Source of the DNA: Escherichia phage WPEC1
Sequence record: PV659873.1
Length of the DNA: 64,000 nt
Reading direction: 5' to 3' (one strand)
How positions within the stretch are numbered: the stretch's first letter is position 1; each line of letters starts with the position of its first letter. Below are positions 39,408 through 40,392 of the stretch, one piece after another. The notes beneath the pieces are model-generated. The model did no database searches, was not told the origin of the DNA, and saw nothing but the letters and a program-made list of their open reading frames with translations. The position numbers and the translations under genes are program-made.

Positions 39408-39680
39408 CTAACACATTGAGGAAGAAGAGATCCAAACACCTCTTGTGGTTAAACCATTTTCATCCAACTCTACACCATAATCTTCACAAATGAAATCAAT
39501 ATAGTGATCTGCGGCTGGCGTTCCTGTAGGGTAATAAGTTTCTCCGTTACCGTAGTCACCTATCCAAGCTTGTTCCTGAAACTGTTCACAAAGTTCTTCA
39601 ATCTCCTTACGAAACTTTCTTTGTGCTTGTTCCATCTCTTTAACTTTCTTTTTTATCAGCAGTTCGCCTTCAGACTCCAC
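39408..39680 (-). CDS. hypothetical protein, paralog family C
   Basis: 90 aa ending ...GVWISSSSMC. Confidence 0.45.
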   Translation of the reverse strand: MESEGELLIKKKVKEMEQAQRKFRKEIEELCEQFQEQAWIGDYGNGETYYPTGTPAADHYIDFICEDYGVELDENGLTTRGVWISSSSMC

Positions 39681-39689
39681 AATCTCTCC

Positions 39690-39908
39690 TTAACAGCTAC
39701 TACTGTGCCAAACGCCTTGAGAATTAACGACGAAACCATCATCACCTTCACCATAACAAGAAGAGGATTGCCAATCTTCAAAACAGATTGCGTCATTTTC
39801 TAAACTAAGACCAAAACCAGCATCTTCAGCTTCTTTTGTAAGTTCGTCCACTAAAGCCATAATAGCTTGGGCTTTTTCAGTTAATTCTTCAACATTACGA
39901 TCACTCAT
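39690..39908 (-). CDS. hypothetical protein, paralog family C
   Basis: ATG at 39908 after AGGAGAAA RBS; ends ...GVWHSSSC; track ORF from 39950. Confidence 0.45.
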   Translation of the reverse strand: MSDRNVEELTEKAQAIMALVDELTKEAEDAGFGLSLENDAICFEDWQSSSCYGEGDDGFVVNSQGVWHSSSC

Positions 39909-40222
39909 TAGTATTTCTCCTCTGGTTGGAAAACTGAACGACAAGCCCACATACTAGCTTCTTTTAAATGTTTAATAGCACAACGGATTTGATCAATACG
40001 TTCGTATGCAAGATCTAATTCTTTTTCTGTGCCGTCAAAAGACCCATGATATGCTTCACAATACTCTTCCTCTAAAGCTTTGAAGATTAAACCTAAACGC
40101 TCTTCTGCATCTTTAATAGCGTTAACCTTGCCAATCTTATCGTCAGTATGCGCCTTATAACCTTTGATATCTTCGATTCCCACTTTACCTCCTATTAACA
40201 ACTTAAAGAAGATGGATGCCAA
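39908..40222 (-). CDS. hypothetical protein
   Basis: 104 aa ORF. Confidence 0.45.
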   Translation of the reverse strand: MASIFFKLLIGGKVGIEDIKGYKAHTDDKIGKVNAIKDAEERLGLIFKALEEEYCEAYHGSFDGTEKELDLAYERIDQIRCAIKHLKEASMWACRSVFQPEEKY

Positions 40223-40392
40223 TTTGTTCCAGTATTCTCATTTTCATCTTCTGGATCATAATAGCCACCCATCCCATATTCAGGGGAGAAACGGAAACCT
40301 TTACCAGTCTCATCTGCTAACTGCTCTGCTTCCGCTAAAGCCTCATAAGCTGCTTTTACGGCTTCTTCTACTGTTTTAAACTTGGTCGTCAT
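40195..40392 (-). CDS. hypothetical protein, paralog family C
   Basis: 65 aa ending ...NWHPSSLSC. Confidence 0.4.
   Translation of the reverse strand: MTTKFKTVEEAVKAAYEALAEAEQLADETGKGFRFSPEYGMGGYYDPEDENENTGTNWHPSSLSC

Follow-up and report, generated by a model that had tools for sequence, protein, structure and literature searches.

Why do three small, closely packed genes of a phage end in nearly the same short tail, rich in serine and closed by a cysteine? The question is raised by positions 39,408 to 40,392 of a 64,000-nucleotide stretch of DNA from Escherichia phage WPEC1 (record PV659873.1), a Phapecoctavirus genome; the whole stretch is referred to here as the window. The three minus-strand genes, termed A, B and C, were found to belong to a phage family with a strong and specific genomic association with a downstream gene for a nucleotidyltransferase-fold enzyme. 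The reading that is favoured below, tentatively, is that the products of A, B and C are protein partners of this enzyme.

The original prediction, made from the sequence alone, described three minus-strand open reading frames (ORFs) with such tails in this interval, and all three are present. Gene A (40392..40195, 65 residues) encodes an A-type protein with a YGMGG hairpin and the tail NWHPSSLSC (motif codons 40198-40221), ending ...TGTNWHPSSLSC. Gene B (39908..39690, 72 residues) is of B-type and carries a double motif, namely an internal DWQSSSC-YGEG (39756-39773) and a terminal VWHSSSC (39693-39710), the latter within the end ...SQGVWHSSSC. Here, the start of gene B was taken as the ATG at 39908, which follows a GGAG ribosome-binding site; the ORF list contained a GTG-started version of 86 residues from 39950. 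Gene C (39680..39408, 90 residues) encodes a C-type protein with a GDYGNGETYYP hairpin and the tail ...RGVWISSSSMC (motif codons 39411-39434). The interval does hold A, B and C, but it is not theirs alone, because an unrelated gene for a protein of 91 residues (40183..39908, minus strand) also lies within it. The order on the minus strand is A, the unrelated gene, B and C, closely packed and with a ribosome-binding site before each. The region is 100% identical in Escherichia phages WPEC2/4/6 and >98% identical in many phAPEC8-like phages.

All three proteins are acidic, as had been noted, with isoelectric points (pI) of 4.05-4.40 and net charges of -8 to -13. An N-terminal helix is common to A, B and C, and a YG-x-G block of Gly and Tyr residues is present in A and C. 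Among the 1,018 stop-to-stop ORFs of at least 30 residues in the window, 51 end in Cys, and W-x(1-2)-SS near the terminal Cys was observed only in A, B and C; the resemblance between the three tails is therefore beyond chance. Given that the tail Ser codons vary among the three genes (tct/tcc/tca and agt/agc), the tail is conserved at the level of the protein.

A shared match to one uncharacterised PHROG, phrog_899, identifies the three proteins as paralogues (E values of 1.2e-12, 1.4e-5 and 5.1e-14 for A, B and C, respectively). A also matched the family hidden Markov model (HMM) with an E value of 6e-16, and profile-profile comparison revealed the B-type to be homologous to the A/C-type (hhalign probability of 91.6%, E value of 8e-7). 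By tblastn, the family was matched in 461 phage records, including phages of Escherichia, Aeromonas, Klebsiella, Enterobacter, Shigella, Citrobacter, Serratia and others. C homologues in T4-like phages (Entb_45, PEi20 and others; 42-57% identity) end in GVWISSSEMC and have a GDYGNGETYYPxG block in common, and C-type orthologues are also present in very distant phages. A-type orthologues likewise occur in distant phages, for example in Acinetobacter phage Berthold, where the protein ends ...AYGMGGRYYGSTSSWTPSSETC. The B-type is a separate orthologous subfamily with two shortened motifs (consensus F-x-D-W-x-x-S-x-C-Y-G-E ... W-x-x-S-S-C; invariant alignment positions W46, S49, C51, Y52, G53, W67, S70 and C72), which spans Phapecoctavirus to JS10 and Aeromonas phages. 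Orthologues of all three types were found together in Phapecoctavirus, T4-like and Aeromonas phages. Since each type has far-off orthologues, A, B and C are ancient paralogues that diverged long ago and not the result of a recent local duplication. Tandem copies are found elsewhere, with two in Aes012 and five in JS10, one of the latter unannotated. This unannotated JS10 member (69 residues, ending ...GFWFSSSMSC) lies between two annotated genes at L002 4799-5008 (plus strand), corresponding to 64527..64736 of the record.

Loss of the motif in homologues, which the original prediction had named as its refutation, is clearly contradicted: homologues retain the tail. In a profile search, 84 of 85 homologues had a terminal Cys, the lone exception being on a contig of 681 bp and looking truncated. 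When 1.84 billion cluster representatives were searched exhaustively with an HMM, 299 matches were obtained; the listed matches include 135 small proteins, of which 125 (each representing a cluster at the 50% level) have a W...C end, and 122 of these 125 read W-x-[S/A/P]-S-S-x-x-C, with Ser, Ala and Pro at the variable position in 87, 25 and 6 cases. In these 122 representatives, both central Ser residues are invariant and the spacing is fixed. The terminal Cys is the sole Cys in 73 of the 135 proteins, and a few family members bear one further residue beyond it. Thus, the conserved tail that had been described as W-x-SSS-x-C stands, but its form does not: the family motif has eight residues, and B has the shorter, six-residue form of its subfamily, W-x-S-S-S-C, which occurs twice. 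The tail is the most conserved part of the family and is therefore under strong functional constraint.

The original prediction had also considered a short linear interaction motif, and the predicted fold argues against this. An AlphaFold2 model of C, built from an alignment of 56 sequences, was highly confident (predicted local distance difference test score, pLDDT, of 95; predicted template modelling score, pTM, of 0.80), and the last ten residues had a pLDDT of 89. The model consists of a long helix (residues 4-34), two short strands flanking the YG-x-G hairpin and a short helix; at the C terminus, a strand (residues 82-85, VWIS) leads into a helical turn (residues 86-89, SSSM) and then the terminal Cys. 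The tail is therefore predicted to be a piece of a compact fold rather than a disordered linear motif. No neighbour of the small proteins was found in a fold search against the PDB, which included the structures of MenA1 and AbiEi. Scans of A, B and C against Pfam, NCBIfam and PADLOC gave nothing significant, and a PDB sequence search with the family profiles gave no match for the small proteins or for the linked enzyme. Matches of the N-terminal helix to the GCN4 coiled coil were weak and insignificant and were discarded. In the literature searched, nothing relevant was found for the family, DUF7277, DUF7275, the PHROG identifiers, the named ORFs, phage MenT-like enzymes or C-terminal Cys proteins. 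Neither sequence nor fold nor literature places the small proteins close to any characterised family. A local resemblance was noted between the family hairpin, GDYG-x-G-x-TYYP-x-G, and the repeat unit of NHL-type β-propellers (...WGSYGSGDGQFYYPxG...), and was taken as local structural similarity rather than homology. Long multi-stretch matches from the exhaustive search covered only this YG-x-G..YYP hairpin region and were rejected as local similarity; three matches from the representative library (P0218, P0299 and P0328) are NHL-type repeat proteins and not family members.

The gene that follows the array in the window (38376..39317, minus strand) encodes a protein of 313 residues, matched by phrog_2141, which consists of DUF7277 and DUF7275 and has >2,208 homologues. 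The tandem small genes of JS10 and those of Aes012 are each followed by a gene for one such homologue. Its fold is that of a MenT/AbiEii-like nucleotidyltransferase: the structural matches were to MenT1 (score of 11.9), TglT/MenT3 (10.4), ANT(2'') (9.7), the Megavirus poly(A) polymerase (9.5), MenT4 (9.1) and LnuA (9.0). The catalytic residues are conserved, with an intact two-metal D-x-D...E triad in which D26-x-D28 is invariant. A Pfam scan at E<=0.1 returned only DUF7277 and DUF7275, with no DUF1814/AbiEii match, and no MenT was found in a PDB profile search with the enzyme. Given the lack of a DUF1814 match and the presence of D-x-D instead of [S/T]-x-D, the enzyme is MenT-like in fold yet lies outside the MenT family.

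The association between the small family and this enzyme was evident in a set of 80 diverse viral loci centred on the enzyme gene. The family HMM matched 59 of the 80 loci and a broader HMM matched 69; all 145 HMM matches lay on the strand of the enzyme gene, 142 upstream of it and three downstream, with one to six copies per locus. Most of the loci without an HMM match contain divergent or B-type members, found by means of the motif. By this measure, ∼7 of the 80 loci lack an upstream member; four of them belong to the L009 lineage, whose member has moved ∼6 kb away, and no small member was detectable in L062 and L080/L081. In a test that was independent of the HMMs, the exact motif was present in 132 of 1,586 ORFs in the same-strand zone 3.5 kb upstream of the enzyme gene and in five of 11,699 other ORFs (odds ratio of 212, p value of 2e-116). 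When all same-strand neighbours were clustered across 85 loci, representing 53 enzyme lineages (<80% identity), the main family was present in 44 of the 53 lineages and the B-type in 12; the best unrelated neighbour reached 10. These lineages cover large phages, including Phapecoctavirus, T4-like and jumbo phages.

The association also holds in the reverse direction. The enzyme is encoded at all nine viral loci to which C-type proteins led. These nine were all that the C-type subset returned; in the whole family alignment, no stretch was conserved enough for a reverse locus search. For divergent members, the enzyme gene lies 0.2-1.5 kb downstream in eight of nine informative contexts. A tblastn search of phage genomes with P0331, a member lacking the nucleotidyltransferase, gave no match. 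Among 185,579 species-representative genomes, the enzyme was found on five contigs only, all in metagenome-derived bins, and all five have small partners upstream; the module is thus essentially phage-restricted. Its placement varies, being in the e/transfer RNA (tRNA) region in JS10 and in the nrdD/gp49 region in Aes012, and these differing genomic regions favour a mobile two-gene cassette over inherited synteny. In the stretch of the T4 record from 40 to 89 kb (49 kb), neither the small family nor the enzyme was found. T4 was also rejected as a genetic model: nrdC.1, nrdC.2 and nrdC.3 are unrelated, and nrdC.11, annotated as a 'nucleotidyltransferase', fails the enzyme profile.

Several further features of the enzyme and its setting were observed. 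A second invariant polar cluster (K112, H115, K126, H183-D184, H187, E229-E230 and E237-R238) is retained even in actinophage homologues whose N-terminal part fails to align with the profile, and hints at a second site for catalysis or binding; this region had no match in the PDB. Residues 264-271 (38505-38528, minus strand) read C-T-S-I-T-S-G-W, the mirror of the W-x-S-S-S-x-x-C tail at the same eight-residue spacing. C264 is kept in 101 of 103 enzyme homologues; in the two actinophage homologues that lack small partners, V or I takes its place. This mirror motif was dropped as evidence for pairing, as W271R variants retain four to six small partners and no covariation was seen. At ∼13 loci, drawn from some five lineages that include jumbo phages, CC2-like phages and a Streptomyces phage, genes for T4-type RNA ligase 1 and/or polynucleotide kinase-phosphatase, a tRNA-repair pair, are found no more than 6 kb from the enzyme gene and for the most part upstream of it; the loci recorded are L116 (818-3606), L017, L021-L023, L028, L029, L032, L034, L049, L064, L073, L075, L079 and L086. 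These neighbours hint at RNA-end biology but are not general. No tRNA genes were found in the window.

On the explanation that we tentatively prefer, A, B and C are protein partners of the adjacent nucleotidyltransferase, either clients or adaptors, which engage the enzyme through the shared tail. Such a role is suggested by the presence of several diverged paralogues, with little beyond the hairpin and tail in common, beside a single enzyme. The small proteins and the downstream DUF7277+DUF7275 enzyme would form a two-component module. Each family member (∼65-120 residues, phage-restricted) is predicted to have a long N-terminal helix packed on a small β-sheet, the last strand and terminal turn of which constitute the tail. 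The tail would be the common element through which all paralogues engage the enzyme, most plausibly by offering the hydroxyls of its invariant Ser-Ser pair and the thiol of its Cys to the site of nucleotidyl transfer, and could either accept a nucleotidyl group or act as a handle directed at the active site. Each paralogue would then owe a specificity of its own to its divergent helix and hairpin. As the module is expressed early and is situated amid anti-defence genes, its likely role is in host takeover or counter-defence.

A more specific proposal is that the enzyme covalently modifies the invariant tail, by O- or S-nucleotidylation of Ser-Ser/Cys or by nucleotidylation, elimination and addition of the Cys to give a ring. 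The tight linkage of the family to a nucleotidyltransferase gene lends circumstantial support to the idea, already present in the original prediction, that the tail marks a modification; this specific form of it we regard as unlikely. In the HepT-MntA (HEPN-MNT) type VII toxin-antitoxin system, the substrate of a nucleotidyltransferase of Pol-β fold is the adjacently encoded protein: MntA, a minimal nucleotidyltransferase, modifies a Tyr of the HEPN RNase. The small phage proteins differ in having no HEPN match in Pfam and in that the candidate acceptors are the Ser and Cys residues of the tail.

A number of observations weigh against a partnership between the small proteins and the enzyme. 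Given that the tail lies inside the AlphaFold2 fold, its conservation could, if the model is correct, be chiefly structural. Both components are acidic (pI of 4.4 and 5.7), and charge complementarity therefore provides no argument for binding. In the window, gene C is parted from the enzyme gene by a hairpin like an intrinsic terminator (39382..39399, minus strand; AACCCGCTTCGGCGGGTT plus a T-run), which lies right after gene C and corresponds to a terminator annotation in phage Schickermooser, and by a sigma-70-like promoter before the nucleotidyltransferase gene (39348..39376, minus strand; TTGACA-17-TAAACT with TG, a consensus match only). Here, the array and the enzyme gene are thus neighbours and not a single operon. 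The enzyme retains all catalytic residues at the partner-less loci (L062 and L080/L081), and actinophage homologues that match the DUF7275 part only are without small-family neighbours; the enzyme must therefore have another substrate. The ninth of the informative divergent contexts is a 7-kb contig with no enzyme gene within reach. Finally, a conserved neighbourhood can also arise by co-regulation or co-transfer.

The surroundings of the array bear on what else the small proteins might do. The 91-residue protein encoded between A and B starts at a GTG and matches the Acb2/Tad1 hairpin-domain family (Pfam PF24729, E value of 1.2e-16), and is labelled just 'hypothetical protein' in matching phage records. 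Its sequence indicates that it is likely to be an anti-CBASS/anti-Thoeris nucleotide sponge (CBASS being an antiphage signalling system based on cyclic oligonucleotides). An Acb2 homologue lies within the array only in the window lineage; in T4-like phages it lies 5-6.5 kb downstream, and near remoter relatives it is absent. Given this variable position, Acb2 is a neighbour and not a component of the module. On L110, a metagenomic phage contig of 92 kb, a homologue of the anti-CBASS protein Acb5 (PF26761; 8187-8420, plus strand) is encoded ∼3.5 kb downstream of the module, a further instance of its location amid anti-defence genes. In Schickermooser, the genes annotated next to the enzyme gene, on its downstream side, include a Sir2-like gene and one for a Dcm-type DNA methyltransferase, and the corresponding stretch of the window is ∼35300-38000 (minus strand; L001 3007-5687); these neighbours are consistent with an early accessory or counter-defence region. 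On the other side of the array, two genes upstream of A, an ORF of 170 residues (40645-41157, minus strand; phrog_8569) ends ...EEVLWQSSDQ, a tail-like W-x-S-S without the Cys, and does not match the small-protein family HMM. A comparable Cys-less end, ...VWHNSNWSNSES, was seen in Acinetobacter phage Berthold (L085 2434-2706). The same gene string is headed by a DprA-like protein of 201 residues (phrog_768; 41147-41752, minus strand), whose gene is found alongside the module in Phapecoctavirus-like contigs and, beyond these, in just a few others.

The alternative that best survives these data is that the small proteins are stand-alone early effectors, such as small oligomeric inhibitors or ligand sponges directed against host defence or metabolism, and that the enzyme merely travels along as a co-transferred or co-regulated neighbour in the same arena, without acting on them. 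The tail would then be structural or ligand-binding, with Trp stacking, Ser hydrogen bonds and a Cys contact to metal or ligand. Like many phage anti-defence proteins, the family is small, acidic and helix-rich, with an N-terminal helix that is weakly coiled-coil-like and a tail that is predicted to be folded into the domain. Acb2 within the array here and within 6.5 kb in T4-like phages, Acb5 at 3.5 kb on L110, the terminator and promoter between the array and the enzyme gene in the window, and the occurrence of either component without the other are all in keeping with such a role. It leaves unexplained, however, why this one enzyme, alone among the neighbouring genes, accompanies the family in 44 of 53 lineages, always immediately downstream on the same strand, and stays coupled to it though the cassette shifts genomic region. 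Nor is there any likeness of the small proteins to Acb2/Tad1, to PADLOC, Pfam or NCBIfam models or to PDB folds. The sponges Acb2, Tad1 and Tad2 are comparable in size and early expression, and an Acb2 homologue lies within the array, but they lack homology to the family, differ in predicted fold and have neither the terminal Cys motif nor the enzyme linkage. A proposed remote relationship of the family to Acb2 was rejected (hhalign probability of 0.9%; no Acb2_Tad1 match in Pfam for A, B or C). Overall, a stand-alone role is the main rival and only somewhat less likely than a partnership.

Small proteins encoded just upstream of a MenT/AbiEii-type enzyme might instead be antitoxin-like inhibitors that restrain a toxic activity, such as the extension of tRNA 3' ends, in the manner of MenA1 and MenT1. 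The order of a small gene upstream and a nucleotidyltransferase gene downstream is that of MenAT1, the bi-lobed fold is shared, and the top structural matches of the enzyme include MenT1, MenT3 and MenT4. MenA1 is a helical protein of 68 residues that blocks the active site of MenT1 (PMC10435456). The MenT active site contains an [S/T]-x-D motif (T39/D41 in MenT1), the Ser/Thr of which serves as phospho-acceptor (PMC10435456, PMC11375011) and is auto-phosphorylated on antitoxin binding; the phage enzyme has D26-x-D28 in its place and so lacks the acceptor that MenA antitoxins use. It also lacks the DUF1814 match that defines the MenT1-4 and AbiEii enzymes and has an extra C-terminal region with the invariant His/Asp/Glu cluster. 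In place of one antitoxin there are one to six anciently diverged paralogues per enzyme, for which PDB searches revealed no relation to MenA1 or AbiEi and no sequence or fold similarity to a known antitoxin. The presence, in some lineages, of a catalytically intact enzyme with no detectable small partner is the opposite of antitoxin logic, and addiction logic is inapplicable to the module's virulent phage hosts; the module is essentially absent from bacterial genomes. Gene order and enzyme fold are all that it has in common with nucleotidyltransferase toxin-antitoxin pairs, whose defining features it lacks, and an antitoxin role is accordingly improbable.

An intramolecular cross-link of the tail, of the kind found in ribosomally synthesised and post-translationally modified peptides, would require that a Ser is activated, for example by nucleotidylation, and eliminated to dehydroalanine, to which the Cys adds to form a ring like that of lanthionine or aminovinylcysteine (AviCys). 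S-x-x-Cys-COOH is the spacing of the C-terminal AviCys ring in epidermin-type lanthipeptides, and the likeness is one of pattern only, namely a Ser three residues ahead of a C-terminal Cys. Two Ser residues and the Cys are invariant in the phage tail, and tandem paralogous genes beside one enzyme recall precursor arrays. Against this, proteins of 65-120 residues that are predicted to be folded are not leader-plus-core peptides, the spacing is shorter in the B-type, and a few members have a residue after the Cys. Neighbour clustering revealed no recurrent gene for a dehydratase, cyclase, LanD-type decarboxylase or radical S-adenosylmethionine enzyme nearby, and we know of no nucleotidyltransferase that drives dehydroalanine or ring chemistry. 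Such a cross-link is very unlikely, striking as it would be. Least tenable of all, and scarcely credible, is a role of the tail as a signal for lipidation or cleavage, as suggested earlier, or for secretion: eukaryotic CaaX, CC and CXC proteins do carry lipid at a conserved C-terminal Cys, but no signal peptide or hydrophobic segment is visible in these strongly acidic sequences (read by eye, with no predictor), their single Cys is terminal and preceded by polar residues rather than paired or at position -4, the tail lies within the predicted fold, and no protease or lipid transferase recurs nearby in the neighbour clustering.

The partnership of the small proteins with the nucleotidyltransferase is thus retained as the preferred, if tentative, reading, and the module is a sharply defined, widespread and experimentally tractable lead, not yet a mechanism. 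An annotation rule, namely a gene for a terminal W-x-S-S-S-x-x-C upstream of DUF7277/DUF7275, gives a name to several 'hypothetical' genes in each genome and brings to light genes that had escaped annotation, such as that at 64527..64736 in JS10. If the genes act together, they constitute an unstudied two-component system that is carried by virulent phages in their hundreds, known from sequenced genomes and infecting Enterobacteria, Aeromonas, Acinetobacter, Pseudomonas and other hosts, including the therapy-relevant Phapecoctavirus and T4-like phages. It joins small proteins with a chemically suggestive invariant end, consisting of a Trp, two Ser residues and a terminal Cys, to an enzyme that resembles toxins which block translation through extension of tRNA 3' ends. 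Its function could turn out to involve a new means by which phages regulate or divert a nucleotidyltransferase, or else a protein modification of a new kind. Were the tail indeed modified, the small phage proteins would be post-translationally armed members of an enzyme-client system of a kind not seen before, on which many large virulent phages (RB69-like, JS98-like, Aeromonas, Acinetobacter and jumbo phages) would draw in host takeover or counter-defence.

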